DNA of 64,000 nucleotides from an uncultured Verrucomicrobiota bacterium (GCA_964584205.1 CAZOZF010000002.1:160-64159); one strand, 5' to 3'; counted from the first letter of the stretch, positions 116 through 49,577 are shown. Notes: a model not told the origin generated them from the sequence alone. Numbers and translations: made by a program.

Positions 116-1297
116 TTAATAAACATTAGATCGAAGGTCTTTTGGCAAGGACGGGACATCAACCGGAATCCAGTTGTTGCGGAGCGACTTGGTCGCCGCG
201 CATCCTGTGGCCACACTCATGCGTCCAGCCAGTGGTGTTGCCAGTGGCCGTTTTCCCTCAAGAAGCATATCAATGAAGTCGCGGCAGATCTGGGGATCGG
301 CACCCCCGTGCCCGCCGGTGGCCGGTTTCACGGTCAGGTCGGAGTTCGCCAGGTTTTTCCAGCGGTTGGAACGATCACGAAGCCGCACAATGACCTTTGA
401 ACTGTCGTCCAGGTTTTCAATCCGGCCTTCCGTGCCGATCAGCGTGTAGTTCCGGCAGTAGTCCGGGGCGAAATGGCATTGCATGTAGCTGGCGCGGATT
501 CCTCCGTCGAGTTGCATCATCATGATGCTGCTATCTTCGACATCGACTTCCTTGCGGAAGACGCACATATCCATCTTGTTGTCAGACCGGTTATCGCGGG
601 ACTGGTACTCGACGCAAGTGTCCTTTTCTTTGCATTTCGGGCAGCGCAGGGTGTTGGGCTTGTCGCCTCCGTAGTAATCCAGTCCGCCCGTCGCCGCCAC
701 GCGAGTGGTGTACTGGCCGGTCAGCCAGTGGATCATGTCAATATCGTGGGATGCCTTTTGCAGGAGGAGCCCGGTGCTGTTCTTCGAATTGGCGTGCCAG
801 TCGTGGTAGTACCACCCTCCGCCCGGGCCGACGAAATGGCGCACCCATACGGCCTTCACTTCTCCGATGGCGCCGGAATCAAGGGCGTCCTTCATGACCC
901 TGAAGATATTCATATAGCGCATGTTGAAGCCGATCATGAACTGCTTTCCAGAGGTTTTCCAGGCCCGGAGCATGCGGTCGCACCCTTCGGTTGTGATCGC
1001 CATGGGTTTCTCGGTGAACACATGTTTTCCAGCTTCAAAGGCGTCGCAGACATATTGCTCATGAGTGAAGTCAGGACTCATGACCGCGACGGCATCAATA
1101 TCCTTTCGATCCAGAAGTTTCCTGTAGTCGCTGGTGATATATCCCTTGCTGTTGACATTTTCGCGATACCAGCTCAAGGCGTCCTTGGAAACATCGGCCG
1201 CGCCCGCCACGATGGAGCGTCCCTTGGGGGCGTGCCAATGTTTGGCCAAACTGCCGCGCCCTGCTGAACCGATGACTCCTATTCTGACTTTATTCAT
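116..1297 (-). CDS. Gfo/Idh/MocA-family NAD(P)-dependent oxidoreductase (sugar dehydrogenase-like)
   Basis: 393-aa ORF; N-terminal Rossmann signature RIGVIGSAGRG and the EKP motif (HVFTEKP) typical of Gfo/Idh/MocA; last gene of the minus-strand operon. Confidence 0.85.
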   Translation of the reverse strand: MNKVRIGVIGSAGRGSLAKHWHAPKGRSIVAGAADVSKDALSWYRENVNSKGYITSDYRKLLDRKDIDAVAVMSPDFTHEQYVCDAFEAGKHVFTEKPMAITTEGCDRMLRAWKTSGKQFMIGFNMRYMNIFRVMKDALDSGAIGEVKAVWVRHFVGPGGGWYYHDWHANSKNSTGLLLQKASHDIDMIHWLTGQYTTRVAATGGLDYYGGDKPNTLRCPKCKEKDTCVEYQSRDNRSDNKMDMCVFRKEVDVEDSSIMMMQLDGGIRASYMQCHFAPDYCRNYTLIGTEGRIENLDDSSKVIVRLRDRSNRWKNLANSDLTVKPATGGHGGADPQICRDFIDMLLEGKRPLATPLAGRMSVATGCAATKSLRNNWIPVDVPSLPKDLRSNVY

Positions 1298-1341: not shown

Positions 1342-3489
1342 CTATTTCGGCCTAATCTCGAAGATCAGAACCTCGAAGGGGCGCATGGAGAATCGGATCG
1401 GAACCGTTGCGGTACAGGTTTGCGTGAGCTTGGGCACGGTTCGCTGTTTAAAGGGGGCCGTCAACGTGTATGCCGTGGGGGTCTTTTTCGGGAGTTCGAG
1501 GAATTTCGCCAGTTCCAGAGTGCAGACTTGATGCTGTTCGTTCGGGTTCCGCAAGGTGATGATTCCCTTTTGGGGCGACCATGATGCCCATCCGTAGATT
1601 TCCAACTTGCGTGGATTTCCGCCAATCCAGTGTGAGTCCACAAGGGTTTCCGCGTTCGACCTTGCCCAGGTGGCGCACTGCGCCAAATCGTTCCAGTTGG
1701 TCGCGTTCAGGAGGCCGTGCGAAATATACATTTCCTGGAGTTGGACGCCTGTTCCGAAATAGGAGCGCACCTCATCCCGGAAGTCGTTCTCGGGATCCTG
1801 ACTGAGTTTGCCTGAATGCCTGGCATAGATGACGCCATGCAACATGAGGGATGATAGAGGGAAGAGGGGACCGCACCGGACAATCCTTTCATAGGTGTTG
1901 GCATCCCGGAAGGTCATCCAGCGTTGGCGCGCTGATCCCACTCCGTAATAAGCATGATCCCAGCCGCCGCGCCAGATCGAATCGCAGATGGAGAGCCAGA
2001 AGGGGGAGGGCCAGGTTCCCGTGGTGAGGTTGATGAACAGATCGGGCTTGATGATTCGCAGATCCTTGATCAACTCGATGGCTGCCTCGAAATCGCTGCC
2101 GAACTGGCTGCCGGGCACGACGCTATTGATGTTCCCGGTGCCGTCGAGTTTGAACTGGTTGATGCCAGAGTTCGTCACCAGATCCACGCAGGTCTGGTGG
2201 AAGGCCTTGTAGTAACGCGGTCCCGAGAGGGCAAATAAGGGTTTATTGGTGTTTCCGTCGGTCTCAAAGCCGGCCGCCATGCCCGAGGCCACCCGTTGCG
2301 CGCGGGGCAACTCGTATCCGCCCCACGGGGAAAGCCAGATGCCTGGAGCCGCGCCACATTTGGCGGCTTCTTCCTTGATCCGGGAAAAGCCGTTGGGGAA
2401 GCCTTCATGAAACTTCCATTCTCCGCCCCGCGTCTTGTCGTCCCAGCCATCATCGAACAGGAAAGACTCCATGGTTACGCCACGTTTTTCGCCCAGTTCC
2501 CGTGTAAACCCGCGGATCGAGTTCAGGCAGTCAGTTTCGTTGAAGGGGGTGAAATATCCGATATCGTACCAGGAATTGTAATGCAGGAATGTGCGGTAGG
2601 GATGGGCGCGTTCACGTTCCACATAATACAGGAAGCCGCGTCTGAGTTGCCCTTGCGGCGTGACGCCCGTTACTGCGGAACAGGTGAATATTCCGCCAGC
2701 TTTGATGGGGAGCGCAAGATCCAGCCAGCACCGGGTCTGGTGTTGCCCCCAGCTGTGCCGCAAAGGGTGGAGTGGGGTGGGCAGCGCGTCTTCGGCTTCT
2801 GAATCCTCATGGGTTTCCGCTTCTGGAACTGTCTGGGTCTCCCCGAACCGACCCAGTTTGACCTGGGCAGCGGCCATCGGGTGTTCGATGGACATGAATA
2901 TCGTTCCGGCTACCACCGGGGAGCCCGCCACGGTACCGCAGATTTCCGCGCCAGCTGGGAGCGGGCGATCAATCATGATGACCTGGGCGATATCTAGGGT
3001 TTTCGCCGGGTGGATGGTGATCTGTTGGCGGATGTAATTGGCACCATCGCCCAGGATGGCGCGCCATTCCACGCGCACCGCGCCATCGGACGTTACCAGC
3101 GATGCCGCGATGGCCCGACCGGGAAAGCGGTCCGCCAACTTGGAGGCGTCCGGAGCCGCCGACAAAGTCAGTTCCTGTAGTGCCCCGGTAACCGTCATTT
3201 CTGATGCCATGATTATCCGGCCATCCCTCAGCTTGAGTTGAAAAGCTTCGGCTGGCGCGGGCAGCACTTGACCGGTCTGTTTATCTTCAAGCGAGCCTGG
3301 AGTCAGATGCCCCCTGTTCACCTTCCAGGATTGTGCGATGAGTTGGTTGTGAAGTGTAACCAGGCGGTCTTGTTGAGTACACAAGGCAGAGCCCGGTTCA
3401 CGCCCCGGGAAGACCGAAGCATCCGCTCCTGAGGCAGCGAGCGTTATAATGAACATGGCTGTGATGACACCGAGGCGTTTTGAATTCAT
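1342..3489 (-). CDS. secreted clan GH-D-like glycoside hydrolase (GH27/GH36/GH129-like TIM barrel, family not assignable); paralog of 30316..32385
   Basis: 715 aa with signal peptide; central block FLYYVERERAHPYRTFLHYNSWYD...FLFDDGWDD resembles the GWNSW/DDGW catalytic-barrel motifs of alpha-galactosidase-like enzymes; colinear similarity to ORF 30316..32385 (LQE[LM]YI, EIYGWASW[ST]PQK, PFEVL[IV][FL]E); start overlaps upstream stop (ATGA at 3486-3489). Confidence 0.6.
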   Translation of the reverse strand: MNSKRLGVITAMFIITLAASGADASVFPGREPGSALCTQQDRLVTLHNQLIAQSWKVNRGHLTPGSLEDKQTGQVLPAPAEAFQLKLRDGRIIMASEMTVTGALQELTLSAAPDASKLADRFPGRAIAASLVTSDGAVRVEWRAILGDGANYIRQQITIHPAKTLDIAQVIMIDRPLPAGAEICGTVAGSPVVAGTIFMSIEHPMAAAQVKLGRFGETQTVPEAETHEDSEAEDALPTPLHPLRHSWGQHQTRCWLDLALPIKAGGIFTCSAVTGVTPQGQLRRGFLYYVERERAHPYRTFLHYNSWYDIGYFTPFNETDCLNSIRGFTRELGEKRGVTMESFLFDDGWDDKTRGGEWKFHEGFPNGFSRIKEEAAKCGAAPGIWLSPWGGYELPRAQRVASGMAAGFETDGNTNKPLFALSGPRYYKAFHQTCVDLVTNSGINQFKLDGTGNINSVVPGSQFGSDFEAAIELIKDLRIIKPDLFINLTTGTWPSPFWLSICDSIWRGGWDHAYYGVGSARQRWMTFRDANTYERIVRCGPLFPLSSLMLHGVIYARHSGKLSQDPENDFRDEVRSYFGTGVQLQEMYISHGLLNATNWNDLAQCATWARSNAETLVDSHWIGGNPRKLEIYGWASWSPQKGIITLRNPNEQHQVCTLELAKFLELPKKTPTAYTLTAPFKQRTVPKLTQTCTATVPIRFSMRPFEVLIFEIRPK

Positions 3490-4568
3490 TTTGTTCCTTC
3501 ATCGTAAAATGCGGCAATATTTTCCAACGGTGTGTCAGCCTGTAGGTGGTGTGCCGGTGCCAGAATGTACCCTCCGCCCTGGCCGCATTCCGTTTTCAGG
3601 CGTCGTACTGCGGAGCGGACTTCATTGGGAGAACCGGCTGGCATGGTGTGCTGTACGCATAGTCCGCCGAATAAGGCCAGACGCTTGCCGTAGCGCTTCT
3701 TGAGCTTGAAGGGGTCGATCGCCATCGGCTGAACCGGGTTAAGCACGTCCAGACCGATCTCGACCAGATCGTCCAGGATGGCCTCGCAGTTGCCGCAACT
3801 GTGGTAGCAGAGCTTGATGGATGGGTTGATTTTTTTCGGTTCGGCAAAAAGCTTTGCGAATCGGGGCTTGAGAAATGTGCGCCACATGTCGACGGACATC
3901 ATCATGCCCTGCTGGTGCGCGACATCGTCGCCAAACCAGACCATGTCCGCACCCATTTCGGCATGTTTGCGTGACGCCACCAGCGGAAAACGCATCACCT
4001 TATCCATCAGCGCATGAACGTAGTCCGGCTCCAGCGCCATGTCGGCCATTAGGTCCTCCATTCCGCGTAGATACCATGCGGCCTCGAAGACGCTGATCTG
4101 GCTGGATCCAATGATCCACTTTTCCTTGCCGTAGAGCGCCTTGATTTTTCGGAATGTGTCGTATTGCGATTCCTCTTCCGGATCGGGTAGCTGGAATGTG
4201 TCCAGCTTACCCGGGTCGCCAGTCAGTGGAGGCCCCACGATTTCCGTGTACTCTCCACTTTCGTTGCGGGCCCAGCGCCAGCGGATGCCCCATGGGCAGG
4301 TGTACTCCGGCCTCGCTCCGCCGTAGAAGCTTAGTTCCAGTCCGACGCAGGTTTTTACCATGTCGTTGCCGAGTGCGACGCCAAGGTCGGCATCGTGGAT
4401 GCCGAGTGTATTGCGAAGCCGTTCGGATATTTCGGGTACAAAGCTGGCAAAAATCGGAGTTCGGTCGGGTTGTTGGTGATTCAGTGCCGTCAACACGCGT
4501 TCCCGGGATGTCATGGATGTGTTCATGTGTTTCAGTTTCTCACAGGGCGAGGGAAGAGAGAAGTTCAC
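3486..4568 (-). CDS. uroporphyrinogen decarboxylase (URO-D)/MtaA-like family protein; methyltransferase-like, function unknown
   Basis: 360 aa; overall URO-D/MtaA fold signature (RVLTALNHQQPDRTPIF...; LCYHSCGNCEAILDDLVEIGLDVLNPVQP...; GGYILAPAHHLQADTPLENI); alternative start at M15 (4526) possible. Confidence 0.65.
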   Translation of the reverse strand: MNFSLPSPCEKLKHMNTSMTSRERVLTALNHQQPDRTPIFASFVPEISERLRNTLGIHDADLGVALGNDMVKTCVGLELSFYGGARPEYTCPWGIRWRWARNESGEYTEIVGPPLTGDPGKLDTFQLPDPEEESQYDTFRKIKALYGKEKWIIGSSQISVFEAAWYLRGMEDLMADMALEPDYVHALMDKVMRFPLVASRKHAEMGADMVWFGDDVAHQQGMMMSVDMWRTFLKPRFAKLFAEPKKINPSIKLCYHSCGNCEAILDDLVEIGLDVLNPVQPMAIDPFKLKKRYGKRLALFGGLCVQHTMPAGSPNEVRSAVRRLKTECGQGGGYILAPAHHLQADTPLENIAAFYDEGTK

Positions 4569-4645
4569 ATTAGGTCAAATATCGAGTGAATTGGGGCGGG
4601 TCGCTCCGCCTGATACCCTGCCTTTATTTTCTCAATTTTCTGGTG

Positions 4646-5833
4646 TCAGGTCGTGCCCGTAACGTCGTCATTTGTCGCCAGTCGGCGTCGGTATTCCTTT
4701 GGCGAACGGCCGAAGTGCCGATGGAAAACCCGGCCCATGTTCTGAGCGTAGCCGAACCCGCTTTGTTCTGCAACCTGGTCAATATTGATGCTCGCGTGCC
4801 GCAAAAGCGCCATGGCCTTATGCAGCCGGGCGTTCACGACTTCGTTGTGCACGCTTCGTCCCAGTAGCCGGCGGAAGCGCCGCTGCAGGACGCTCCGGGA
4901 AAGGCCGGCCTGTTGCGCAACGGTATCCAATTGCACGGAGCCGGTACAATGGTTGCGGATGTAGTGGAGTGCCCGGGCGATGGCCGCGTCGTTTACGCCG
5001 AGAAAATCCGTGGATTCCCGGACTGCCACATACCAAGGCTTGATGAGTATGGGTGCCTTCGGCGGCTTTTTCCCCTGCATCAGGCGGTCGAGAAGGGCGG
5101 CCGCTTCGTAGCCGACTTGCACATGGTTGGCTTCGACGCTGGACAGGGTGGGCGTGATCATCTCGCAAAGGGTGCGGTCATTTCCTACACCCACCAATGC
5201 TACCTGGTCGCCGATCACCAGATCCGCCGTCTGGCATGCTTCCCGCACCAGTAGTCCCTGGACATCGGAACATAGCATGATGCCTGCCGGAAGTTGCAGG
5301 CCGCCAAGCCACTTGGCCACGCGCGACACGAGTGTATGCCAATCGGTTTTCTTGAAGCCCTGTCGTGAGAGCATAAACGCGCGGCATGTGTGGTTGCGCT
5401 CTGCCAGATACGCAGTGAAGCCAGCGCAACGTTCCTCCGACCAGTATTCACCGCTGATGCCGAGGAAGGCGAAGTGTATGAAGCCGCGGTCCAGGAGGTG
5501 TTCTGCGGCCATGGCGGCAATTGCGGCATTTTCCACGTGAACAAGGGGGATGCCATGTTTCCGATGTACCCCCAGAACGTCAACGACAGGAACCCGCTTG
5601 GTCGCAACCGCATTGAGGATACGCTCATCCTGAAGGCGGGCGATGATGCCGTCACCGCTCCAGTTCCGGAACCAGGAGGGCGGCGCTTGCTCCAGGTCGT
5701 GCGGCTGGGCATAGACGGACCAGGGGGCATGTTCACGGATGTACTGCCCGATGCCAAACAGGATGTCCTGACCTGAGGAGAGCGACGTCTCCACCAGAAG
5801 AGCGACCCGGGGAGGGCGGGGATTAAGCTTCAT
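4646..5833 (-). CDS. XylR-type transcriptional regulator (periplasmic-binding-protein-like sugar sensor + C-terminal AraC-family HTH)
   Basis: 395 aa; N-terminal LacI/PBP-like sensor fold, C-terminal AraC HTH (VQLDTVAQQAGLSRSVLQRRFRR...FGRSPKEYRR); first gene of the minus-strand operon, divergent from 5907. Confidence 0.85.
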   Translation of the reverse strand: MKLNPRPPRVALLVETSLSSGQDILFGIGQYIREHAPWSVYAQPHDLEQAPPSWFRNWSGDGIIARLQDERILNAVATKRVPVVDVLGVHRKHGIPLVHVENAAIAAMAAEHLLDRGFIHFAFLGISGEYWSEERCAGFTAYLAERNHTCRAFMLSRQGFKKTDWHTLVSRVAKWLGGLQLPAGIMLCSDVQGLLVREACQTADLVIGDQVALVGVGNDRTLCEMITPTLSSVEANHVQVGYEAAALLDRLMQGKKPPKAPILIKPWYVAVRESTDFLGVNDAAIARALHYIRNHCTGSVQLDTVAQQAGLSRSVLQRRFRRLLGRSVHNEVVNARLHKAMALLRHASINIDQVAEQSGFGYAQNMGRVFHRHFGRSPKEYRRRLATNDDVTGTT

Positions 5834-6951: not shown

Positions 6952-7019
6952 CAGTGTGGGTTATGAGAAAATAGATGACTGAGGACAAGGTTGGTCTTTC
7001 AGCAAGGGGTGGTGAAGAT

Positions 7020-8723
7020 ATGAAGTCAAAGTTTCTGAATCCTTGTAAGCCACATTTCAGTAGTCGGTTCATTCAAGTGGCTTGGGCATCGGTTGCGTTG
7101 TTCTGCTGTGCTTTCGGCGCCGGTACGGCCTCTGCGGAAGCCAATTACTGGGACAGCAATGGCGCCAGCGCCAGCTTCGGTGCGGCTGGGGGTACGTGGG
7201 GAACGGATGCCTTCTGGAGCACGAATAGCGCTGGCGACACTTTGCCATCCATCACCAATCCCTCAACCTCCGACGACCTCAACTTCGGCTACACCAGCAC
7301 CGGCTTGAGCAATGGGACTATCACTGTTGTCACCGGCAGTGCCAACAGTCTGACCTTTGCGGCCGGGTCGGGTGCCATTACGTTATCCGGCGGCACGATC
7401 ACCTTGGCCGATGCCGCCACGATTTCCGTGAATAACGCCCCTACAAATGTCATCAGTTCGGTTATTGCGGGGGCGGCCACCAGCTTGACCAAGGTCGGAA
7501 CGGGGACTTTGACGCTGAGCGGCCTCAATACCTACAGCGGCGGGACGACCATCAGCGCGGGAACGGTTATCGTCGGAAATACCAATGCGTTGGGAACGGC
7601 GGGTGCGATTACGTTGGGGGATGTCAATTCCGGCGCAAATGCGATTACGTTGGTGGCCACTGCCAATCCGTATTCTCGTGCCTTCACCGTGGCAAACTAT
7701 GGGGGCGTGGTGACCCTTGCAACCGCCGGCGGGAAGTTTTCGGGGGCGATCACCTTGAACCGTGGCGTTAAACTGATACCGAATTCAAATAATGCGGCCA
7801 ATTTTGATGGTGGTTTTTCGGGGTCGGGTGATCTGACAATTGCGAATTATAATGGTTATGGCGTCAATTTCCGCTTCGCCGACAATACCTTTACTGGCAG
7901 CGTATTTGTTCTTGCGGGTAGCACGTTTGGGGTTGGTGGTGGCCAGTCGCTAACCGGGTCGCTCAAAAGCCTGATTCCAGACTCAGCGACTGTGAATGTC
8001 CTTGGCACGATGATGTTGAGCGAGCTTGCGCGCAACGAAACTATCGATGCCCTGACCGGTTCAGGCTCTGTGACATTCGGACAAGTTGGCGACATGTTGA
8101 CCGTCGGTGGGGGCAATGGCTCTGGCACGTTCAGCGGCATTATTAGCACTTCTGGCTCCTTTGCCAAGACCGGCACCGGTGCGCAGACACTTACGGGTAT
8201 CAACACCTACACTGGAACCACAACGGTCAACGGCGGCACCCTTCTGGTGAATGGGAAAATTACGGGTGCTGGTGCCGTCACTGTCAATAGTAGCGGCACG
8301 TTGGGTGGAACGGGGATGGTCTCTGGCGCGGTGACCGTGACCTCGGGCGGGACATTCTCGCCCGGCGACCCGGCGGTGAGCAACGGCATTGGACGGGTTA
8401 CGGTTAGCAACGACGTGACATTGGCTACGAACGGGATCTTTGCAGCCCAGATCGCGGCAGGCGGACTGGTTGATATGTTGGTGTCGACGCGGACGATCTC
8501 GAACCAGAATGCGACTTTGTCGCTTTCGGTGCTGGATGTGAACGCTCTGAAGGCGGAGTTCTTTACGGTCATGGTGGCTTCCAACATCGTGGGGACGTTT
8601 AACGGGCTTCCGGGTGGAGCCGGTCTTTCGGTTGGGGGGCGAAGTTTCGTCATTTCCTATCCAGGGAATACGAACGTGGTATTACAGTCCATGTCATTGG
8701 GTATGCTTCTGATGGTGCAATAG
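7020..8723 (+). CDS. secreted autotransporter-associated beta-strand-repeat (TIGR02601-like) surface protein, 567 aa
   Basis: Gly/Thr/Asn-rich repeats LTLSGLNTYSGGTTISAGT / GTGAQTLTGINTYTGTTTVNGGTLLVNG; signal peptide begins at the internal Met (MKSKF...CAFGAGTASA) so 7020 is preferred over the ORF-track start 6975; hydrophobic C-terminus; shares a ~650-bp near-identical segment with 8862..16145. Confidence 0.75.
   Translation: MKSKFLNPCKPHFSSRFIQVAWASVALFCCAFGAGTASAEANYWDSNGASASFGAAGGTWGTDAFWSTNSAGDTLPSITNPSTSDDLNFGYTSTGLSNGTITVVTGSANSLTFAAGSGAITLSGGTITLADAATISVNNAPTNVISSVIAGAATSLTKVGTGTLTLSGLNTYSGGTTISAGTVIVGNTNALGTAGAITLGDVNSGANAITLVATANPYSRAFTVANYGGVVTLATAGGKFSGAITLNRGVKLIPNSNNAANFDGGFSGSGDLTIANYNGYGVNFRFADNTFTGSVFVLAGSTFGVGGGQSLTGSLKSLIPDSATVNVLGTMMLSELARNETIDALTGSGSVTFGQVGDMLTVGGGNGSGTFSGIISTSGSFAKTGTGAQTLTGINTYTGTTTVNGGTLLVNGKITGAGAVTVNSSGTLGGTGMVSGAVTVTSGGTFSPGDPAVSNGIGRVTVSNDVTLATNGIFAAQIAAGGLVDMLVSTRTISNQNATLSLSVLDVNALKAEFFTVMVASNIVGTFNGLPGGAGLSVGGRSFVISYPGNTNVVLQSMSLGMLLMVQ
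7509..8155. repeat. ~650-bp direct repeat, copy 1 (~90% nt identity to 14859..15505)
   Basis: By-eye alignment of nt 7509-8155 with 14859-15505 at a constant offset of 7350; encoded peptide runs NTYSGGTTISAGTVIVGNTNALG...GNGSGTFSG[IV]ISTSG and is ~90% identical. Confidence 0.8.
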
Positions 8724-8861: not shown

Positions 8862-11800
8862 ATGAGAGAAAACCTATCAAGTTGTAGAATCATTCTGGGG
8901 GTCCTCGCGGTCATCTGGACCACTTTGAGTTCCTCGCAGGCGGTAACCACTGGTTTTAATCAAACAACCGTGGGGCCTCACGATTATAATACGGCCGGCA
9001 ATTGGGTCGAGAACTCGCTTCCCGGCAATGGCATCTGGGACAGTTCGCTGACGTTGGGGGCGAATCAATTCGTTACATTCACCGGCGACACCTCATTGAC
9101 CACCGCGTTGAATTTCAATTATGCCGGCAACAAATCCCTCACGCTTTATTCTTCTGCGGCTGGGACCGTCAACCTTACGCTCGGTGGTGACATTGGCGTG
9201 AATACCAGTGGCGGCACCTCGGCAAACGTCACAATTGGTAATGCGACCCAGATCCTTAATGTCAACCTAGGCGGTACAACCCGCACCATGACGGTGGCGT
9301 CCGGTCGAACGTTGACCCTTCAGAATGTCGTTTCTAGTGGTGGCATCATAAAGGGGGGTGACGGCACGCTGACGCTGAACGGCAACAACACCTACAGCGG
9401 TGGCACCACCATCAGCGCGGGAACGAATATTCTCGGAAATGCCAATGCTTTGGGCACATCGGGAACGATCACGTTGGGCTCTTCCGGTTCCGGGGCGAGG
9501 TTGATGATTGCTGGACTTACCATTACACGCCCTATCACAGTGTCTGCAGGAACGGGTACAGTAGGTATTGGTGCACAGGGCGGTACCCTTAGTGGAGTGA
9601 TCGCGCTAAACCGTCCCGTCAGCTTGAGTGGAGTTAATGTCTATGGCGGCATTTCCGGGACGGGCGATGTGACTATCGACTCTTCATTCTACAGTGGATA
9701 TCTTATAACCAGTTTCGCCGCCGTGTCCGGCGGCGGCGTAGCCAATACCTTCAACGGAAATTTGTATATTCTTTCCGGTGCCACTTTGAACGTTGGCAGC
9801 GGTTGGGCGTCGAGCATCAGTGCGATTCCTGACTCATCGACAGTGAATGTAGTTGGCACTTTAAGTATATTAAAAAGCGCGAATGGCGAAACCATTGATG
9901 CTCTGACCGGAAACGGCATTGTGACTGCGGCTTCGAGTGGTGGAACGTTAACCATTGGCAGCGCCAATGGTTCCGGTGCTTTCAGCGGTGCTATCGGTGG
10001 TTCTGGCGCCATCATCGTCAAGACGGGTATCGGGACCGAGATCTTCAGCGGCGTCAATACCTACACGGGAACCACGACCGTCAATGGCGGGGCGCTCCTC
10101 ATCAACAGCCCCGGGTCCCTTCATGCCAGCAGTGCGGTTTCCGTGAATCCCGTCGGCTGGGCAACCCTCGGGGGAAACGGTACTATTAACGGTTCGGTTG
10201 CGGTAGCTGCGGGCGGTTTTTTGGCTCCAGGTAGCGCCTCCGGCACCATCGGCAAACTCTCCCTGTCCAGCACGCTGACCCTGAACGGGGGCTTTCTGGC
10301 CTTTGATCTCAACGCGGATACAACAGCCGGTACGACCTACGATCAGATCGCCATTACCAGTACCTTGACTATGAGTGGTGTGAACGTCATTCAGCTCAGT
10401 TCCCCCTCGGGTTCGATTGCGGTGGGAACCTATACGCTCATGACCTTTGCCTCCTCGACGGCAAGCACGTTCAAATTCCCGAATGGAACCGAATCCATGA
10501 TCATCGGGAGTTCCACCCTTACTCTCATTAACGGCACCACGAGCCTGACTCTAACCGTGGCTAACGCAAGCGCTTCAGTACCGCCCTTTGCTGCCTTGAC
10601 GTGGAAAGGTAATTCCAGCGGCACATGGGACACGTCAACCGCGAACTGGCTCAATAGCGCCGCCGTCTCGTCGGCCTACGCTGAAGGGAACCAGGTTGCG
10701 TTTGATGACACCGCTTCCGGGAACTTCTCCGTCAGCGGGGGGACGGTCTCGCCCCTTTCCGTGACTGTCGGCAACACCGTCAACGCCTACACGATTTCGG
10801 CCGCGATTGCGGGCCCCACGCCTTTACTCAAAATCGGGTCGGGTACCTTGACTCTCTCTGGCGCCAACACGTACAGTGGCGGTACAACGCTCTCCGCAGG
10901 AACGCTCAATCTTGCCAATACAACGGCCCTGGGTGCTACTGCCAGCACGCTTACAATCAATGGGGGAGCCATACTCGACGGCAATGTGACGATTGCGAAT
11001 GCCAACGCTCAGAATTGGAACGGTGATTTCACCTTCAGCGGGACCAGCGGAAGTTTGAACCTGGGAACCGGTGCGGTGACGCCGAGTGCCAATCGTACGG
11101 TCACCGTTTCGGCCAATACCCTGACCGTAGGCGGGGCGATCGGCGGTGGTGCCAAGAGTTTGACCAAGCTCGGCGACGGAACCCTGATCCTTTCCGGGGC
11201 GAACACCTACAGTAGCACGACGACGGTGGGTGGCGGTACATTGAAGATAGACGCCGGGGCCGGTGGCGCTCTCAATTCCTCGTCGCCGCTGACCTTCAAC
11301 ACCGGTGGTGGCGTGTTCAATTATGATAATGCGAATGCCGGGGGCGCCAAAAGTCAGAGCCTGGGGGCGCTGACGTTCAGTGCGGGGGATGGAGTGGTGA
11401 AGGTTACGCGTACGGCGATTCAGAATGTTTTTCTGACGCTAGCTTCTAGGGCCCGCACAGCCGGAGCTTCGGGGAACTTCGTTCTCACCGACACGGCTGG
11501 CGGTGGCGTCAATGGAACGAATCTCAAAATTGCATTAACGACACCGCCCACGGCCAGTGTCTTCATCGACCAAGGCACCTTTTTCAACGGATCCTCGTAC
11601 GCCGCCTATGACTCAGGCGGGTTCGTGCGGGCAATGAATTATACCACCGATAATAGCAGTGCTGGTGGCAGCGTGGGGAGCAGCTTCACGACTTTTACGG
11701 TCGCCAGCGCGAATGGCAAACACGTCGATCTTGGCACAGCCGGAATCATTTCGGCTGCGGGGACTGAAAGCATAAAGAGTTTGCGTATTGGCGGTGTTAA

Positions 11801-14800
11801 TACCGTTACCGTGGGTGCCGGGAATACTTTAACAATCGCAAACGGGGGTATCCTCAAGACGGGTAGTAATGCCTCGTCAATTAGTGGCGGAAACGCAATT
11901 TCGCCTACTGTTGAATTAGTGGTACGCACAGATACCAGTAGTGATGCGCTGACGATCAGCACGCCGGTTACAGGATCGCAGGCTCTGACCAAATCTGGCG
12001 CCGGCACAGTGACATTTTCCGGCGCGAACACCTACAGCGGCGCGACCAAGGTCGATGCGGGCACTCTTCTGGTGAACAATACGCATATTGTCAACAGCTC
12101 GACTGAAGCTTACACCGTGTTGAACGCTGCCACGCTGGGCGGTAGTGGTCAAATTAAATTGAATCAGGTTATCACCGTCAACAGTGGCGGGTTCCTTGCC
12201 CCTGGTAACGGGCTCAATTCGTCGCTGAAAATTGATGGTGGTACCAAGGCCACCGCGGGACTTCTTACCATGTCCTCCGGTGCGAAGTTCAGCTTTTCCT
12301 TGGATGCCACCGGAGCGGGTAACCCGACCATGCTGGACTTCTGGAATTACGCGGCTAACGATTTAGCGCTCAACAGCAACGTGGTCAACCTCACGCTTTC
12401 CGGGAATCACACGCCGGGCACTTACACAAATAGCATTTTTCGCTTCTACAGCGACACGGGCAGCTCGGCGACCCCCCACGGTATCAGTTCCGGCCTGACC
12501 ATTGGTACCGTGGATTCCGGCATCTCCTCGCCCTCCATCATCTACAGTGCAAATACGATCGACGTCGCCTACACGATCCTGCCCGGGGCGGCCGATGCGA
12601 TGCGATCGACCCTGACGCCGACGAGTGCGAGTATCACGGCCAATGGGATAGCCTCACAGATCTTGACCGTTCAGGCGAAAGATTCCTACGGCAACTACCT
12701 GACCTCTGGCGGCGCGACCGTGACGATCACGAAATCCTCCGGTACGGGTACGATTGGTAGCGTGACGGACAACAACAACGGCACCTATACGGCGACGGTG
12801 ACTGCGCCGGAGACCACGGGTAGCGGCGTCTTTGTGGCGACATTGGGTGGGGACCAGGTCAAGAGCGGAGAAGGTAGCCAGACGCAGGCGGCGGTCTCCT
12901 ATGTCTCTGGCCCGGCGGATCACCTTACGATCACCTCTTCGATCTCTGGCCTGATCGCTGGCGATACGAGGGAGATTACGGCTGAAATCCGGGATGGAAC
13001 CGGGAATCTGTGCACGGGAGATTCGACCTCGGTTCATTTCTCGCAGTCGGGTGCTGGTAGCGTCAGCGGTCTCCCCGCCGATGTGGCGGCCGTTTCCGGC
13101 ATTGCGACCCAGCAGGTTACAGGCAGTGCTGGGGGTTCAGTTACCATCACCGCGCATGTGGACGGGTTGACTGATGGCAGCACGACATTCACAGTGCTCC
13201 AATCCTCGGCAAGCGCCTATTCGATTCAGGTTTCTGGGAGCAGCAGTGCGACCACGGCGGCAGGCAGTGGCGTGCATCTGACGGTGATTGCACTGGATGG
13301 CTCCGGCAACACGATGACCGATTTCGACTCCGACAAGGCCCTTTCGTTCTATGGACTGGTCAGTTCCCCGAACAGCACGGCGCCGACGGTCACCGACAAG
13401 AATGGCGTCGCAAGATCGGTCACATCCACGGTCGGTTTGCCCAACACCACGCTCACATTTGTCGATGGCGTGGCGGATGTGGGTGGCGTAGATAATCCGG
13501 TGCTAACGGCGTATAACGGAATCAGCTCAGCGGTGATGTTGCATTGCTCGGATGGAACTAAGAGCACGGAAAGTACCCATGGCTCTGGCTTGAGTTTAAC
13601 AGTTAATCCCGCCAGTGCGAGCACGCTGACGGTGAACGGGTTCCCAACCTCCGCAACGGCGGGAATACCGGGCGATGTGACGGTGACGGCCAAGGATCCC
13701 TATGGAAACACAGACCCAAGTTATGCCGGAACAATCACATTCACCGTTGGGGTGGCTGATACCGGGAAGACAGTTCCGTCCGACTTTACGTTTATACCGG
13801 CCACGCACAATGGAGCGCATGCGTTTAGCGGTGGTGTGACACTCACGAAGGCAGTCACTGGCGGCGGCCAGTCGATCATTGCGACGGACAAGAATGCCGG
13901 GAGCATTAACGGGACACAAAGCGGTATCACGGTCAATCCCGGTACGGCGAATATGCTGGCACTCGATTCGGGGGACGGGCAGCTCGGGAGCGGGTCGGCG
14001 GCTCTTGCCAGTCCCTTCGTGGTAAAGGTGACTGATGTCTACAACAATCTGGTGCCGGGCGTCACGGTTGATTTTGCGGTCTCAACGTATCCTGCGAGTG
14101 CGACGGGGCAAGCGTTGAGCCCCGCGAGTCCCGCCACAGGTAGTGATGGCAAGGCGTCCAGCACTCTAACCTTGGGAGACAAGCAGGGGGCCTATACGGT
14201 TACTGCGACGGCCTCCGTTCCCAACGGTAGCCCCGTGACCTTCACCGCCACCGCCGCGCCGATAGGATCTGTGATCAAGGCTGGTACGGGAACCGACCTT
14301 GCGGCCGTCGGAAGTTGGGATGGTGGTGCCGTGCCGGGTTCCGGCAACAAGGCCTATTGGTCGAGTGCTTCACTCGGCGCAAATCTGACACTGGGTTCCT
14401 CTGCGTCGTGGGGGAGCATCACAGTTGAGGGCGCCCTAACAGACATCGGTATCACCGGGGCGGGTACGCTCACGCTCGGCGAGAACGGCATCGATCTGTC
14501 GGCATCCCCAGTCAATCTTTCGATCGGAAACCCTATCACGCTTGGAGCCGCCCAGACATGGGTCGTGAACTCGGCTAAGACGTTGACGGCATCGGGAATC
14601 GTCGGTGGAAGCGTGGCTAGCGCACTGGTCAAGGACGGCGCGGGCACGCTTACCCTATTGCATACCAACACGTACGGTGGTGATACGACGATCAGCAACG
14701 GAACGTTCGAAATCGGCGGCGCGGGTCAATTGGGTGGCGGAACGTATACCGGTGCCATCACGAACCACGGCCTATTGCGAGTGAACAGTTCCGCCAGTCA

Positions 14801-30315: not shown

Positions 30316-32385
30316 ATGCAAATTGTGCCTGCGGTTCTCTCTCTTACACTCGTCGGGATCATCGGTGTCGGGTCGACCTTGGGCGCGGCTTCATCGGCGC
30401 CACGTGAGCTTTCCGCGCCGGCGGATATTATCTATGCCAAGGTTATGCCTGGTAGGGCCACCGCCATTCAGTCGGGCCGGAATTTCGTCCTGGCGAACAA
30501 TGTGCTTGAGATGGGGTGGTCGCTGGAGGCCGGGCATTTGCGGCTGACCCGTATTGCGGATCGGATGAACGGACGTTCCTATCTCCAGAGCAATGAGGTG
30601 TTTGAAGTCCAGTTGGATAACCGGACCAGGATTTCCTCGTCCGCTTGCCAGCTTGTAGGATCGCCGACGCTTGAGGTGATCACCCCCGTGTCTGATTCTG
30701 CCTGTGCGGCGATGCATTTAGGTGGCTGGAAGATTGCGGCCCGGTTCAAGCATGAAGCCGCCGGCTTAACGGTTCAATGGAATGCTGAACTCCGGGACGG
30801 GTCGCACTATGTGCGCCAGATTCTCCGTATCGAAGGGGCAAAGGGAACGTTATCCGAGGTCAACTGCCTGGAGACCAACGTCGGGCGGGCATGGAATGAG
30901 GGCTCGGTTTTGGCCGGCAATCCCGTATGCAATGATCATCTGTTCATGGGCCAGGAATTGCCGATGTCGAAGAATGTGGTGAAGAGTGGGGTGCTTTCTG
31001 GCGATTCCGGAGCGGTTTCATGTGGCTTGTCCTGCAAGCTTCCGCTTCAGACCGGCAAGGCGTATGAGTTTTCGTCAGTTCTGGGCGCTTATCCTGAAGG
31101 GCAACGTCGCCGTGCCTTCCTGCGGTACCTGGAGCGTGAACGGGCCCGGCCTTATCGGCAATTCCTGCACTATAATTGCTGGTTCGATCTTCACATCAAA
31201 CTCAATGAGCAGGATATCTTGAAGAACGTCCAGGCATTTACCGAGGAAATGACGGTCAAGCGGGGAGTTGCGATGGATTCATATGTGTTGGATGACGGGT
31301 GGGACAATCCACGTGAAGGATTCTGGACGATTGACAGGAAGAAATTCCCGTCGGGATTTGATACGGTTACGTCGGAGCTGGACCGTGTGAATTCGCACAT
31401 GGGCATCTGGATATCACCGTTGGCCGGGTATGCCTTCATCGGGGAGCGGGTGGAGCATGCCAGTAAGCTGGGCCTGGTGCGTGCAGGTTCGTTTCTTGAT
31501 CTGTCATATGCTCCGTACTACGAGTGGTTCAGGGATTTCTGCGCAAACATGGTGAAGACCAATAAGGTGAATTATTTCAAGTGGGATAAGGCCGGCGAGG
31601 GGGCTTCGCCGCATTTCATGGCCCTCCTGTCATGCGCCCGGGAATTACGTCAAATTGACCCCAATCTCTTTTTCAATGTTACCGTGGGAACCTGGGCGTC
31701 GCCGTTCTGGTTGAATGTGATCGATAGCACCTGGCGCGGTGGGGAGGATGTTGGCTGGGACTGGACTTGTAAGGGGAATGACCGCGAGAAATGGCTCAAT
31801 TACAGGGATGGTGTGACCTATCGGAATGTGGTCAAGGCAGGGCCTCTCTATCCCTTGAATTCGATCATGAATCATGGAATTGTCCATGCGTCACTGGGTG
31901 CGGCGGGACGTGCGGCCGGCACGGGAACGGATCTGCGCAATGAGGCGCGTTCATATTTCGGGTCGGGAACAGCGCTTCAGGAGCTGTACATCCAGCCGAG
32001 CATCATGACGTCCCAGGCGTGGGACACCGTGGCGGCAGCGGCGAAGTGGGCGCGTCTGAATGCCGATGTCCTGGTGGATACGCACTGGGTGGGCGGGGAT
32101 CCCACTAACCGCGAGATTTATGGCTGGGCGTCATGGACGCCGCAGAAGGCGACTCTCACTTTGAGGAATCCGGATGACCAACCGCGTGAGATCACGCTGG
32201 ATGCCGTTGAGGTGTTTGAATTGCCCTCATTTGCCGCGAAGGATTATGTAATGACGAGCCCCTATGCGGATCAACGGATCCAGAAGGTGGAAATGAAGGC
32301 CGGAAACCCAAGCGTGTACTCGCTTCAGCCTTTCGAAGTGCTTGTGCTGGAGTCTAGTCCAACGAAGGATAAATATATCAGATAG
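30316..32385 (+). CDS. secreted clan GH-D-like glycoside hydrolase (paralog of 1342..3489)
   Basis: aggag RBS; signal peptide; FLRYLERERARPYRQFLHYNCWFD...YVLDDGWDN; C-terminal blocks shared with 1342..3489. Confidence 0.6.
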   Translation: MQIVPAVLSLTLVGIIGVGSTLGAASSAPRELSAPADIIYAKVMPGRATAIQSGRNFVLANNVLEMGWSLEAGHLRLTRIADRMNGRSYLQSNEVFEVQLDNRTRISSSACQLVGSPTLEVITPVSDSACAAMHLGGWKIAARFKHEAAGLTVQWNAELRDGSHYVRQILRIEGAKGTLSEVNCLETNVGRAWNEGSVLAGNPVCNDHLFMGQELPMSKNVVKSGVLSGDSGAVSCGLSCKLPLQTGKAYEFSSVLGAYPEGQRRRAFLRYLERERARPYRQFLHYNCWFDLHIKLNEQDILKNVQAFTEEMTVKRGVAMDSYVLDDGWDNPREGFWTIDRKKFPSGFDTVTSELDRVNSHMGIWISPLAGYAFIGERVEHASKLGLVRAGSFLDLSYAPYYEWFRDFCANMVKTNKVNYFKWDKAGEGASPHFMALLSCARELRQIDPNLFFNVTVGTWASPFWLNVIDSTWRGGEDVGWDWTCKGNDREKWLNYRDGVTYRNVVKAGPLYPLNSIMNHGIVHASLGAAGRAAGTGTDLRNEARSYFGSGTALQELYIQPSIMTSQAWDTVAAAAKWARLNADVLVDTHWVGGDPTNREIYGWASWTPQKATLTLRNPDDQPREITLDAVEVFELPSFAAKDYVMTSPYADQRIQKVEMKAGNPSVYSLQPFEVLVLESSPTKDKYIR

Positions 32386-47259: not shown

Positions 47260-47345
47260 ATCCCGTTTGTGGGAGATTGACCGTCACAAAGAAGCTGATG
47301 AGTGATGGGGTTGAATCGCATTCAAACCTAGCGGAGGAAAGTTCC

Positions 47346-48386
47346 ATGAACCGTATGAAAGCCTTGGTAAAGCGCAACGCCACTCCAGGTCTTTGGCTGG
47401 AGGATGTGCCCTTTCCTGAGGTTGGGATTAATGATGTCCTGATCAAGGTATTCCGGACTGGGATTTGTGGCACTGATTTGCATATATACAACTGGGATGC
47501 ATGGGCTCAGAAAACCATCCCGGTTCCCCTCGTGATTGGTCATGAATTTGTCGGGACGATTGTGGAGGTCGGGGCGAACGTGAAGGATTTTCATTCTGGC
47601 GATATTGTCAGCGGGGAAGGACATGTTGTTTGTGGGCGATGCCGGAACTGCCTGGCCGGACGTCGTCACCTGTGCAAGGATACCCAGGGCGTGGGGGTTA
47701 ACCGGACTGGGGCGTTTGCGGAGTATCTGGCGTTACCCGTAACCAATGTGTGGGGACATGCGCCGGGGCTCGATCGTGATATCCAGTCCATTTTCGATCC
47801 CTTTGGGAACGCTGTTCATACCGCCCTTAAATTTGAATCGCTGGGGGAAGACGTCCTCATCACTGGAGCCGGGCCCATCGGAATCATGGCGGCGGCTGTG
47901 GCCAAGCATGCCGGGGCCCGGTATGTTGTCATTACGGATACCAATCCCTACCGACTCGATCTGGCCCGGAAAATGGGGGTGACGTTGGCGGTCGATCCGA
48001 CCCGGGAGAGTCTGCCAGAGGTTCAGAAGAAGCTCGGCATGAAGGAAGGGTTTGATATCGGATTGGAAATGAGCGGGAATCCTGGCGCCTTTCGTGATAT
48101 GCTGGCCAACATGGCACACGGGGGCAAGATTGCGATGCTGGGTATCCCTCCGGAATCGGGCACCATGGACTGGAATAAGGTCATTTTCAATATGTTGACG
48201 ATCAGTGGGATCTACGGGCGGGAGATGTATGAGACCTGGTACAAGATGACAGCGCTTTTGCAGTCCGGACTGGATATTAGCCAGATTGTGACCCATCGAT
48301 TCCACTATACGGACTTCCAGAAAGGGTTTGATGCGATGCTTTCAGGGAACTGCGGGAAAGTGGTGCTGACCTGGTGTGAGGGGTGA
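47346..48386 (+). CDS. tdh: L-threonine 3-dehydrogenase
   Basis: Colinear similarity to E. coli Tdh along the full length ([58 protein letters not shown]...[21 protein letters not shown]...[25 protein letters not shown]); ggagg RBS ~9 nt before this Met (ORF-track start 47277 is too far upstream). Confidence 0.93.
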
Positions 48387-48389
48387 TAT

Positions 48390-49577
48390 ATGCTTACTCA
48401 TTCCTTCAAGTTGCAATTGAGCGGGACGATGGAAGAGATACGCGGCGCGGGCCTTCTTAAGAACGAGCGGATCATCGCGTCCCCGCAACGCCCCAGACTC
48501 AGTACCTCTGTCCGGGCTGAGGTGCTCAATATGTGTGCCAATAACTATCTCGGGTTGGCCTCCCATTCCGAGGTGATTGCCGCAGCCCATGCCGCTCTCG
48601 ATCAATGGGGCTATGGTATGGCCAGTGTCAGGTTTATTTGTGGCACCCAGCCATTGCATAAGCAGTTGGAGCAGGCCTTAAGTGATTTTCTCGGAATGGA
48701 GGAAACCCTTCTGTATTCCTCCTGTTTCGATGCGAACGGTGGGTTGTTTGAAACCCTGCTTGGCGAGCCGGACGCCGTTATTTCTGACGAACTCAACCAT
48801 GCCTCGATCATCGATGGGATCCGCTTGTGCAAAGCCAGGCGTTACCGCTACCTGAACAACGATATGGCCGACCTTGAGGCCCGGCTCCGGGAGGCTCTGG
48901 ATGCGCGTCATCGCTTGATCGCCACCGATGGGGTTTTCTCGATGGATGGCACGTTGGCCAACCTGCCGGCAATCTGTGATCTGGCTGAACGTTATGATGC
49001 GATGGTTATGGTTGACGATTCCCATGCCGTTGGCTTCATGGGTGCCCATGGCCGGGGAACGCACGAACATCATGGGGTGATGGGGCGGGTGGACATTATT
49101 ACCGGCACGCTCGGAAAGGCGTTGGGTGGCGGCTGCGGTGGGTATACCAGCGCCCGTGCCGGCATAGTTCAGTTGCTTCGTCAAAGGTCACGCCCTTACC
49201 TTTTTTCCAATTCCCTGCCACCCCCGGTCGTCGGGGCTTCTCTGAAAGTCATGTCGATGTTGGTTCATTCGGCCGAACTGCGTGACCGGTTGGAGTCCAA
49301 TGCCCGCTTTCTCCGTGAGGGCCTTGCCCGGGCCGGATTCACACTGGTTTCCGGCGTTCATCCGATTATTCCGATTATGTTGGGCGATGCCGCCCTGGCA
49401 ACGCGTATGGCAGACCGGCTCCTTGAGAAGGGCGTCTATGTGATTGGTTTCTCTTATCCGGTGGTGCCCGTTGGAAAGGCTCGTATCCGCGTGCAGGTTT
49501 CGGCCGCCCATACGCGTGCCGATCTGGAGTTCGCGCTTCAGATGTTTACCGAAGTGAAGCAAGAGTTCGGTGTTTAG
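48390..49577 (+). CDS. kbl: 2-amino-3-ketobutyrate CoA ligase (glycine C-acetyltransferase), PLP-dependent
   Basis: Kbl/AONS-family signature ([46 protein letters not shown]...[15 protein letters not shown]; FSMDG lysine region); immediately downstream of tdh. Confidence 0.93.

Follow-up and report, generated by a model that had tools for sequence, protein, structure and literature searches.

A URO-D/MtaA-superfamily protein recruited to bacterial glycan loci, tentatively a methyl-sugar:corrinoid methyltransferase

A 64-kb stretch of DNA from an uncultured Verrucomicrobiota bacterium (GCA_964584205.1 CAZOZF010000002.1:160-64159; "the window" hereafter means this whole stretch of 64,000 nucleotides) carries on its minus strand a gene of the uroporphyrinogen decarboxylase (URO-D) superfamily, placed between the genes for a XylR-type regulator and an exported glycosidase. 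We find that this gene encodes a URO-D/MtaA-superfamily enzyme that has been recruited to glycan utilization and that lies outside both HemE and the curated MtaA/CmuA families. Because MtaA is the nearest known relative, a putative metal site is conserved, the context is one of sugar genes, and neighboring clades are linked to corrinoid proteins, we tentatively read the window protein as a methyl-sugar:corrinoid methyltransferase, a reading to which we give slightly less than even weight.

Methyl ethers on sugars block ordinary catabolism. They include 6-O-methyl-galactose in red-algal galactans, 2-O-methyl-fucose and 2-O-methyl-xylose in rhamnogalacturonan II (RG-II), 4-O-methyl-glucuronate, which occurs both in xylans and in arabinogalactan proteins, the 3-O-methyl sugars of polymers from algae and bacteria, and methyl-inositols. 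The way in which glycan degraders of the gut, of sediments, and of other anoxic settings handle methyl sugars appears to be undescribed in the literature that we searched, and the same full-text search yielded no description of the function of the URO-D-like family or of anaerobic methyl-sugar demethylation. The known route in that literature is an oxygen-dependent P450 (PMC6292453). The URO-D-like family is highly conserved and routinely mis-annotated as "uroporphyrinogen decarboxylase." If the protein is a sugar demethylase, it would add a new substrate class to the corrinoid methyltransferases, tie glycan degradation to B12 and one-carbon metabolism, and correct thousands of annotations; if its chemistry differs, it would still be a conserved, uncharacterized enzyme of sugar catabolism with clear assay candidates.

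The URO-D-like gene and its product

The minus-strand open reading frame (ORF) 3486..4568 encodes 360 amino acids (aa) from a GTG start. An internal ATG at 4526 gives a 346-aa product (3486..4526), and an alternative ATG lies at 4514. Since homologs mostly start with "M(T/N)SRERV," we place the true start at 4526 or 4514; gene callers on three independent contigs chose the ATG at 4526. Those three contigs carry an identical URO-D-like protein, homologs of 60-90% identity occur in several phyla, and the ORF is a real gene. The initial annotation had assigned a URO-D-superfamily protein to 3486-4568, and the assignment holds (Pfam URO-D, E = 1e-33; AlphaFold2 model, mean predicted local distance difference test [pLDDT] score 93.9), with the start more likely at 4526.

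3486..4526, minus strand: URO-D-fold, MtaA-like protein, 346 aa, without signal peptide (Pfam, NCBIfam, PDB, AlphaFold2/Foldseek, invariant columns)
3486..3489, minus strand: ATGA stop/start overlap between the TGA of the URO-D-like gene and the ATG of the glycosidase gene (sequence reading; gene calls agree)

Read directly, plus-strand bases 3486-3489 are TCAT, corresponding to ATGA in the coding direction. The overlap with the glycosidase gene, noted in the initial annotation, is thus seen both in the sequence and in the gene calls, and it is a predicted translational coupling of the two genes. Overlaps with the downstream gene recur among relatives, with GH172 in locus L088 (4 nucleotides [nt]), SGL in L090 and L091 (17 nt), and GH2 in L050 (4 nt).

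A non-heme member of the superfamily

The match to Pfam URO-D (PF01208) reached 117.2 bits against a gathering threshold of 23.9, and the AlphaFold2 model had a predicted template-modeling score (pTM) of 0.91. Foldseek related this model with probability 1.00 to both MtaA and uroporphyrinogen decarboxylase (UROD) structures, ranking MtaA 4ay7 first (template-modeling [TM] score 0.75, 21% identity), followed by UROD (~0.7, 14-20%) and MetE (~0.55, 11-14%). The best PDB sequence match was likewise Methanosarcina mazei MtaA 4ay7 (E = 5.9e-12 with the protein, 5.9e-11 with a 27-sequence profile), and UROD chains appeared at E = 1e-4 to 5e-2 with 14-20% identity. Classification by profile hidden Markov models, which the initial annotation had suggested, placed MtaA/CmuA-type models best. 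These were the only NCBIfam models matched, all below cut-off: the TIGR01463 family at 87 bits against 235.4, the MtaA equivalog at 64 against 400, and MtbA at 37 against 600; no HemE model matched at E <= 0.01. Judged by sequence and predicted structure, the protein is a non-heme member of the URO-D superfamily, nearer to MtaA/CmuA than to HemE.

That the gene is simply hemE, encoding the uroporphyrinogen III decarboxylase of heme and tetrapyrrole synthesis, is extremely improbable. The Pfam match and the source annotations, which read "uroporphyrinogen decarboxylase," would suit such a role, as would the CbiK-type cobaltochelatase gene that lies 52 nt after the URO-D-like gene in one genome, that of Ligaoa zhengdingensis NSJ-31 (L040, 10001-11971). 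An AraC-type regulator lies upstream of that pair, the surroundings are housekeeping genes, and the pairing may either point to a link with cobamides or be coincidental. Against hemE speak the lack of a HemE equivalog match, the weak matches to UROD structures (1e-4 to 1e-2, 14-20% identity), and the conservation of a putative metal site, whereas UROD is not a metalloenzyme (PMC539065). The neighborhood is sugar-catabolic, and several genomes hold at least two copies (L016/L018, L015/L029), every copy having a separate regulator and glycosidase. Apart from the CbiK neighbor, no tetrapyrrole genes were found in the window or at the 160 other loci examined. We ruled out plain hemE on three grounds: no HemE model matched, the context is not one of tetrapyrrole genes, and a putative metal site is conserved. 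The window is an island of carbohydrate-active enzyme (CAZyme) genes and the related loci are sugar loci, in keeping with the expectation of the initial annotation that the gene is not simply hemE.

Clades and a conserved putative metal site

A word-indexed search returned 6,195 homologs of the URO-D-like protein, and an exhaustive profile search returned 1,753 clusters at 50% identity (E <= 1e-30). Going by protein names, homologs of 60-90% identity belong to Lentisphaerae, Kiritimatiellaeota, Planctomycetes/Phycisphaerae, Bacteroidales, Acidobacteriota, Deltaproteobacteria, and Acididesulfobacillus; taxon names indicate that the carriers are mostly anaerobic lineages. We sampled 80 genome loci and 80 metagenome loci besides the window, called ORFs, and clustered the neighbors, examining at most 10 kb of DNA on each side of the URO-D-like gene. 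From a motif table and a neighbor-joining tree we delimited clade A, with H-x-C at positions 242-244 and 47-100% identity to the window protein, and its sister clade B, with H-x-D and 42-47% identity. Several more divergent paralog groups lie beyond these two clades. The window protein agrees with the commonest clade-B pattern at 18/22 tabulated positions.

The H-x-C of MtaA aligns with an invariant H242-x-C244 (346-aa numbering), and the Cys of its "PGCG" motif aligns with His326 of an invariant "PAHH," which is His in 27/27 aligned sequences. The H-x-C residues and the "PGCG" Cys are what we take to be the zinc ligands of MtaA. From this alignment, His242, Cys244, and His326 are probable metal ligands at the MtaA zinc positions, and the bound metal is probably zinc. 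Position 244 toggles between Cys and Asp across the 160 loci, with H242 and H326 fixed, as expected of a metal ligand. A metal site is therefore plausible from the sequences, with a ligand set unlike the H-x-C...C of MtaA. Also invariant in the URO-D-like family are GDD199-201, Q205, D260, N263, Q266, Q292, Q329, and D331; when clades A and B are taken together, the invariant or nearly invariant positions are E148, R/H154, G199-D-D201, Q205, H242, D260, N263, Q266, Q292, H326, Q329, and D331.

Family members sit in sugar loci

The family occurs in glycan loci of Lentisphaerota, Kiritimatiellota, Planctomycetota, Bacillota, Spirochaetota, Synergistota, and Chloroflexota. At 35/81 loci, the URO-D gene has a regulator cluster of the XylR or AraC type nearby, and direct BLAST matches to the XylR protein of the window were found at 13 other loci, where the gene is adjacent and mostly divergent (the ortholog in L008 is 77% identical). 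Relatives of at least 57% identity, mostly from Planctomycetes-Verrucomicrobia-Chlamydiae (PVC) lineages and Planctomycetota, share a recurring module composed of a XylR gene (usually divergent), the URO-D-like gene, and, directly after it, a gene for a large exported protein; the region upstream of the URO-D gene is there a separate one that faces the divergent XylR gene. The exported protein is variously a GH2 LacZ-like enzyme, a GH172 enzyme, or a member of a ~1030-aa family, and it is GH36-like in the window only. At some loci, such as L085, the GH2 LacZ-like partner is apparently fused to a sulfatase; GH4 is also among the proteins encoded directly downstream of URO-D-like homologs, and an SSS symporter is encoded as well at some loci of the at-least-57% group. 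In the closest Victivallales relatives, an overlapping gene for an SMP-30/SGL lactonase takes the place of one for a large exported protein.

Loci from Bacillota, Spirochaetota, Synergistota, and Chloroflexota instead hold CUT2 monosaccharide importers with AraF/RbsB-like binding proteins, and these same four phyla also have two to four tandem URO-D paralogs, GalK, FucI-like isomerases, and GH4. The homology of the binding proteins is a generic CUT2 arabinose/ribose-type similarity that does not pinpoint the sugar. The consistent message of the shared context is that the enzyme would carry out a cytoplasmic step on an imported monosaccharide-like compound, ahead of standard catabolism. Because the partners include GH2 LacZ-like, GH36-like, GalK, AraF-like, and FucI-like proteins, they suggest, as a hint and no further, a galacto- or fuco-configured monosaccharide as substrate. 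We found nothing specific to the 2-O-methyl-fucose or 2-O-methyl-xylose of RG-II that the initial annotation had offered as examples, and these are speculative substrates; a galacto- or fuco-configured sugar is what the recurrent partners hint at.

The conserved exported protein of ~1000 aa repeatedly adjoins the URO-D-like gene in Planctomycetota (cluster c14; L024 2555-5647, L026 6675-9692 on the minus strand, L029 1-2787 on the minus strand, and L079 11136-13637). This 1030-aa protein had no Pfam, PDB, or profile match, and by its position it presumably represents a new glycosidase family. We set aside the idea that it is a relative of the GH36-like protein, as hhalign and a PDB profile search both came back empty.

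Corrinoid proteins accompany the sister clade

Within the examined DNA, a corrinoid protein is encoded at 18/71 clade-B loci (4/26 genome and 14/45 metagenome), and in 12/18 its gene lies at most 110 nt from, or overlaps, the URO-D gene. The operon order is a CUT2 importer, the URO-D protein with His-x-Asp, an MtaC-type corrinoid protein, and a second, divergent URO-D protein, joined in some cases by RACo or DUF1638. From its gene content, this operon looks like a complete corrinoid methyltransferase system for an imported sugar-like substrate; no description of such a CUT2/URO-D/corrinoid operon was found in the literature searched. We observed the operon type in L145, L156, L144, L151, L166, L137, L072, L076, L058, and L152, which are Chloroflexota-like contigs and contigs of other anaerobes.

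Two further loci combine the same elements. Protein P0220 (586 aa) is 36% identical to the window protein over its full length, keeps H-x-C, and is fused to B12-binding_2 and B12-binding domains; its locus (L092, 3349-5109) also encodes another URO-D protein, a stand-alone corrinoid protein, and a Sugar_tr transporter of the major facilitator superfamily, with a sigma-54 activator upstream. L109, a clade-A locus (54% identity), reads sugar-binding-protein fragment, URO-D, regulator, corrinoid protein, and a gene of the MtaA type with HxC...C. Because the sister clade, P0220, and L109 are linked to corrinoid proteins and sugar importers, methyl transfer from a sugar-like substrate is a reasonable proposal.

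Two more clade-A loci, L049 and L113, have a corrinoid protein/DUF2284/RACo set; we down-weighted this cluster as evidence for the window clade, as it lies 7.5 kb off on the other strand, with an insertion sequence element between in L049.

Directly after the corrinoid protein gene, several loci encode a protein of ~380 aa with no Pfam match (cluster c12; L072 1745-2899, L076 11744-12898, L137 2328-3449, and others). A weak, collinear hhalign alignment (E = 0.033) connects c12 to the URO-D-like family and takes in an H-x-D-G motif; there was no PDB match. That c12 is a very divergent URO-D-fold methyltransferase is only suggested by this alignment.

CobU, CobS, and CobD are encoded by cobamide lower-ligand assembly genes. 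All three genes are present in L090 (Victivallales, 80% identity) at 12601-14128, 6.5 kb downstream of the URO-D-like/SGL/GH2 cluster. Near L030 there are ECF/CbiQ genes and a cobalamin riboswitch, a single case among housekeeping genes.

Proposed function and its alternatives

URO-D-superfamily proteins decarboxylate uroporphyrinogen or perform zinc- or corrinoid-linked transfer of methyl or alkyl groups, O-demethylases included (PMC10418091; PMC539065), and zinc is present in some O-demethylase enzymes of the methyltransferase I (MT I) type (PMC13222342). In the scheme that we propose, the exported GH36-like glycosidase would release a monosaccharide derivative outside the cytoplasm, which would then be imported, and the XylR-type regulator would sense the sugar. 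The URO-D/MtaA-fold protein, as a cytoplasmic metalloenzyme, would perform one tailoring step on this derivative, for which the likeliest chemistry would be O-demethylation of an O-methyl sugar. The metal held by His242, Cys244, and His326 would polarize the methyl-ether oxygen, acting as a Lewis acid in the way that the zinc in MtaB activates methanol, and an MT I-type reaction would move the methyl group onto the Co(I) of a corrinoid. Genes at other places in the genome would supply the corrinoid protein, the second methyltransferase, and the reductive activase, and the freed sugar would enter ordinary catabolism, possibly via the Gfo/Idh/MocA dehydrogenase encoded downstream. We infer here the identity of the metal, the methyl-sugar substrate, the corrinoid dependence of the window clade, and the direction of methyl transfer.

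A methyl-sugar demethylase or methyltransferase was the idea put forward in the initial annotation. The MtaA-like fold, the metal site, the sugar loci, and the corrinoid links of clade B support it; the cognate corrinoid protein for which that annotation had proposed a search is missing from the window. Searches with phmmer and a 7-sequence corrinoid-protein profile over stop-free stretches of at least 60 aa, together with Pfam on the long ORFs, found no corrinoid-binding protein in the 64 kb, and we take these searches to rule out a corrinoid protein hidden there; no cobalamin riboswitch was found in the window either.

Several observations weigh against the methyl-sugar:corrinoid methyltransferase reading. 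The window holds no RACo, DUF1638, or second methyltransferase gene. Within the examined DNA, a corrinoid protein is encoded at 3/90 clade-A loci and at 0/52 loci of the relatives with at least 57% identity. By profile score, the protein misses the MtaA/CmuA family cut-off by a wide margin (87 versus 235 bits), and the alignment puts a His in place of the third zinc Cys of MtaA. In the literature searched, there is no earlier case in which an aliphatic methyl ether of a sugar is cleaved in a corrinoid-dependent way. The XylR, URO-D, and glycosidase module, which is widely transferred, looks self-contained, and a stand-alone enzyme fits such a module better than one that needs three oxygen-sensitive partners in trans. 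Gene context alone would fit either a substrate-specific MT I or a methyltransferase II (MT II) that uses a methyl-corrinoid, and a shared role of the MT II kind would likewise agree with the 60-80% conservation between phyla.

Because these modules look self-sufficient, a corrinoid-independent enzyme is a serious rival, possible in our estimation and leaning toward unlikely. By this account, the sister clades kept methyltransferase chemistry and the window clade changed function, becoming a stand-alone URO-D-fold metalloenzyme for isomerization, epimerization, sugar-acid decarboxylation, or the hydrolytic or lytic removal of a non-methyl substituent. It would explain the 0/52 count at close loci and the compact two- or three-gene modules with varied glycosidase partners. 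It also finds support in the SGL lactonase of the closest relatives and the Gfo/Idh/MocA protein of the window, which are enzymes of oxidative sugar-acid routes, in the His/Cys/His ligands rather than the His/Cys/Cys of MtaA, and in the large number of invariant residues that are Asp, Asn, Gln, Glu, or Arg, as is typical of sugar-binding pockets. Yet the literature cited reports no such activity in the URO-D superfamily (PMC10418091, PMC539065, PMC13222342), the window protein shares 42-47% identity and 18/22 conserved positions with a clade whose corrinoid link is clear, and L109, of the same clade as the window, sits in a corrinoid methyltransferase set.

We think it quite unlikely that the protein is an MT II-type enzyme like MtaA, which would take the methyl group off a methyl-corrinoid, hand it to a thiol or tetrahydrofolate, and not act on the sugar. 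MtaA is the nearest characterized relative, and the clade is highly conserved where the accompanying paralogs are far more divergent, as would be expected if the acceptor were shared and the other methyltransferase were substrate-specific; moreover, in clade-B operons two or more URO-D-like genes surround the corrinoid protein gene, and their roles are not assignable from context. However, an MT II standing alone under the control of a sugar sensor, and translationally coupled with a secreted glycosidase, would make little physiological sense where no MT I or corrinoid protein accompanies it. The canonical MtaA HxC...C in L109 is on the partner gene and not on the window clade, and the ligand set is less thiolate-rich than that of MtaA. 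The glycosidase coupling and the MtaA-type motif of the partner gene in L109 lead us to favor MT I over MT II. A more far-reaching version of the methyl-transfer proposal, which we hold to be rather doubtful, is that the window protein and its sister clade would constitute the first oxygen-independent removal of methyl ethers from sugars or cyclitols, and so an anaerobic equivalent of the P450 methyl-galactose demethylase, with the enzyme of the PVC-type subclade a stand-alone glycan-locus module that needs no dedicated corrinoid protein; this enzyme would then rely either on free cobamide or on a wholly new way of cleaving ethers with a metal.

Comparison with known systems

The Methanosarcina methylcobamide:coenzyme M methyltransferase MtaA (4ay7) shares with the window protein the URO-D-type TIM barrel, the position of the H-x-C, and a C-terminal "LAP..(C/H)" segment. 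The two differ in that they are 21% identical, that the "PGCG" Cys has given way to His, with another invariant His after it, and that the window protein has no corrinoid protein or methanogenesis genes nearby and belongs to a bacterial sugar-utilization locus. To our knowledge, coenzyme M is not expected in the bacteria that carry the URO-D-like family.

OdmB, VdmB, MtvB, MtoB, CdmB, and CmuA, the MT I enzymes of corrinoid-dependent O-demethylases and dehalogenases, belong to the same UroD-related superfamily, and some contain zinc; none of them was among the sequence or fold matches in the set of PDB entries searched. The sister clades share with these systems an operon logic of MT I, corrinoid protein, and MT II (plus activase), and the P0220 fusion is CmuA-like. 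Such an operon, with corrinoid protein, second methyltransferase, and activase, is absent from the window and present in clade B, P0220/L092, and L109. The known substrates of the MT I systems are phenyl methyl ethers and halomethanes, whereas the window family keeps company with sugar importers, regulators, glycosidases, and kinases.

HemE/UROD has PF01208 and the fold (TM ~0.7) in common with the family; it differs in its 14-20% identity and in being metal-free, whereas the family keeps His/Cys(Asp)/His. MetE, the cobalamin-independent methionine synthase, has a distantly similar barrel with zinc at the C-terminal end and transfers methyl groups without a corrinoid, but its ~750 aa form a double barrel, its zinc is held by a His/Cys/Glu/Cys set, its substrates are homocysteine and methyl-folate, and it is 11-14% identical. 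The P450 6-O-methyl-D-galactose demethylase of aerobic marine bacteria (PMC6292453) does the same physiological job that the URO-D-like protein would do as a demethylase, and is encoded in polysaccharide-utilization loci. Its fold is unrelated and its chemistry oxidative and oxygen-dependent, so that the likeness is one of analogy only; by contrast, the URO-D-like family occurs mainly in anaerobic lineages and would act by methyl transfer.

Neighboring genes in the window

The URO-D-like gene is flanked on the minus strand by three further genes, and the glycosidase has a paralog elsewhere in the window:

116..1297, minus strand: cytoplasmic Gfo/Idh/MocA NAD(P)-dependent sugar oxidoreductase (Pfam N- and C-terminal domains)
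1342..3489, minus strand: GH36-like (clan GH-D) glycosidase, exported, 715 aa, with an N-terminal Sec-type signal peptide (two-sequence profile against GH36)
4527..4645, minus strand: intergenic region of 119 nt upstream of the URO-D-like gene (sequence)
4646..5833, minus strand: XylR-type AraC-family regulator with PBP1_XylR, Peripla_BP_3, and HTH_18 (Pfam; sugar-sensing)
30316..32385, plus strand: paralog of the GH36-like glycosidase, in the neighboring CAZyme island (35% identity over the full length; sub-threshold Melibiase match)

The 715-aa glycosidase had no Pfam match, and its matches to alpha-galactosidases were weak. A profile built from the two paralogs matched GH36 alpha-galactosidase structures (E = 7e-6); the matched stretch covers ~120 residues and takes in both the DDGW and the K-x-D motif. 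Because the match runs across both motifs, the label "GH-D-like" given in the initial annotation is a fair one, and the protein is best regarded as a putative distant relative of GH36 rather than a clear member. Together with its paralog, it possibly forms an unassigned glycosidase family of clan GH-D. The N terminus of the glycosidase resembles a Sec signal peptide by eye, and the URO-D-like and Gfo proteins have none; since only the glycosidase has this signal, it would work outside the cytoplasm and the URO-D-like enzyme inside.

The 119-nt intergenic region is a likely regulated promoter/operator site, in which a simple scan found no consensus sigma-70 site and no terminator. Ahead of the XylR gene, the same kind of scan found a weak promoter-like site, and it found no terminator-like sites on the minus strand between the four genes. 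The Gfo/Idh/MocA gene lies 44 nt downstream of the glycosidase gene, its NCBIfam matches are all below cut-off, and it was not found beside homologs of the URO-D-like gene, being linked to it in this window only. The four-gene arrangement is compatible with an operon and makes these genes candidates for co-transcription. As to the operon headed by XylR and ending in Gfo/Idh/MocA that the initial annotation described, gene order, strand, and the lack of a terminator agree with it; the arrangement is specific to the window and the Gfo gene is not conserved. A conserved four-gene operon of XylR, URO-D, glycosidase, and Gfo is ruled out, since the GH36-like partner and the Gfo gene are both window-specific.

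The remainder of the window is a large CAZyme island, with three GH95 or GH95-like proteins, two GH78-type rhamnosidase domains, GH43, GH27, GH36, GH127, and GH2 enzymes, and SASA and GDSL esterases; the genomes nearest to the window are those of uncultured Victivallales and Kiritimatiellae. On the plus strand, an exported protein of at least 1568 aa (59295-63998+) combines GH2 domains with a GH31 catalytic domain and has no stop before the window ends. Amid the glycoside-hydrolase island, at 47277-49577 (plus strand), genes for an alcohol dehydrogenase of the zinc type and an aminotransferase of class I/II form a pair; it is odd in a glycan locus and could serve the processing of amino sugars or keto sugars. 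Two surface proteins with autotransporter-associated beta-strand repeats (PATR) are encoded at 6975-8723 (582 aa) and 8862-16145 (2427 aa), also on the plus strand. A block of ~200 aa in the 582-aa protein is nearly identical to one near the C-terminal part of the 2427-aa protein, which points to a module duplicated between the adjoining genes.

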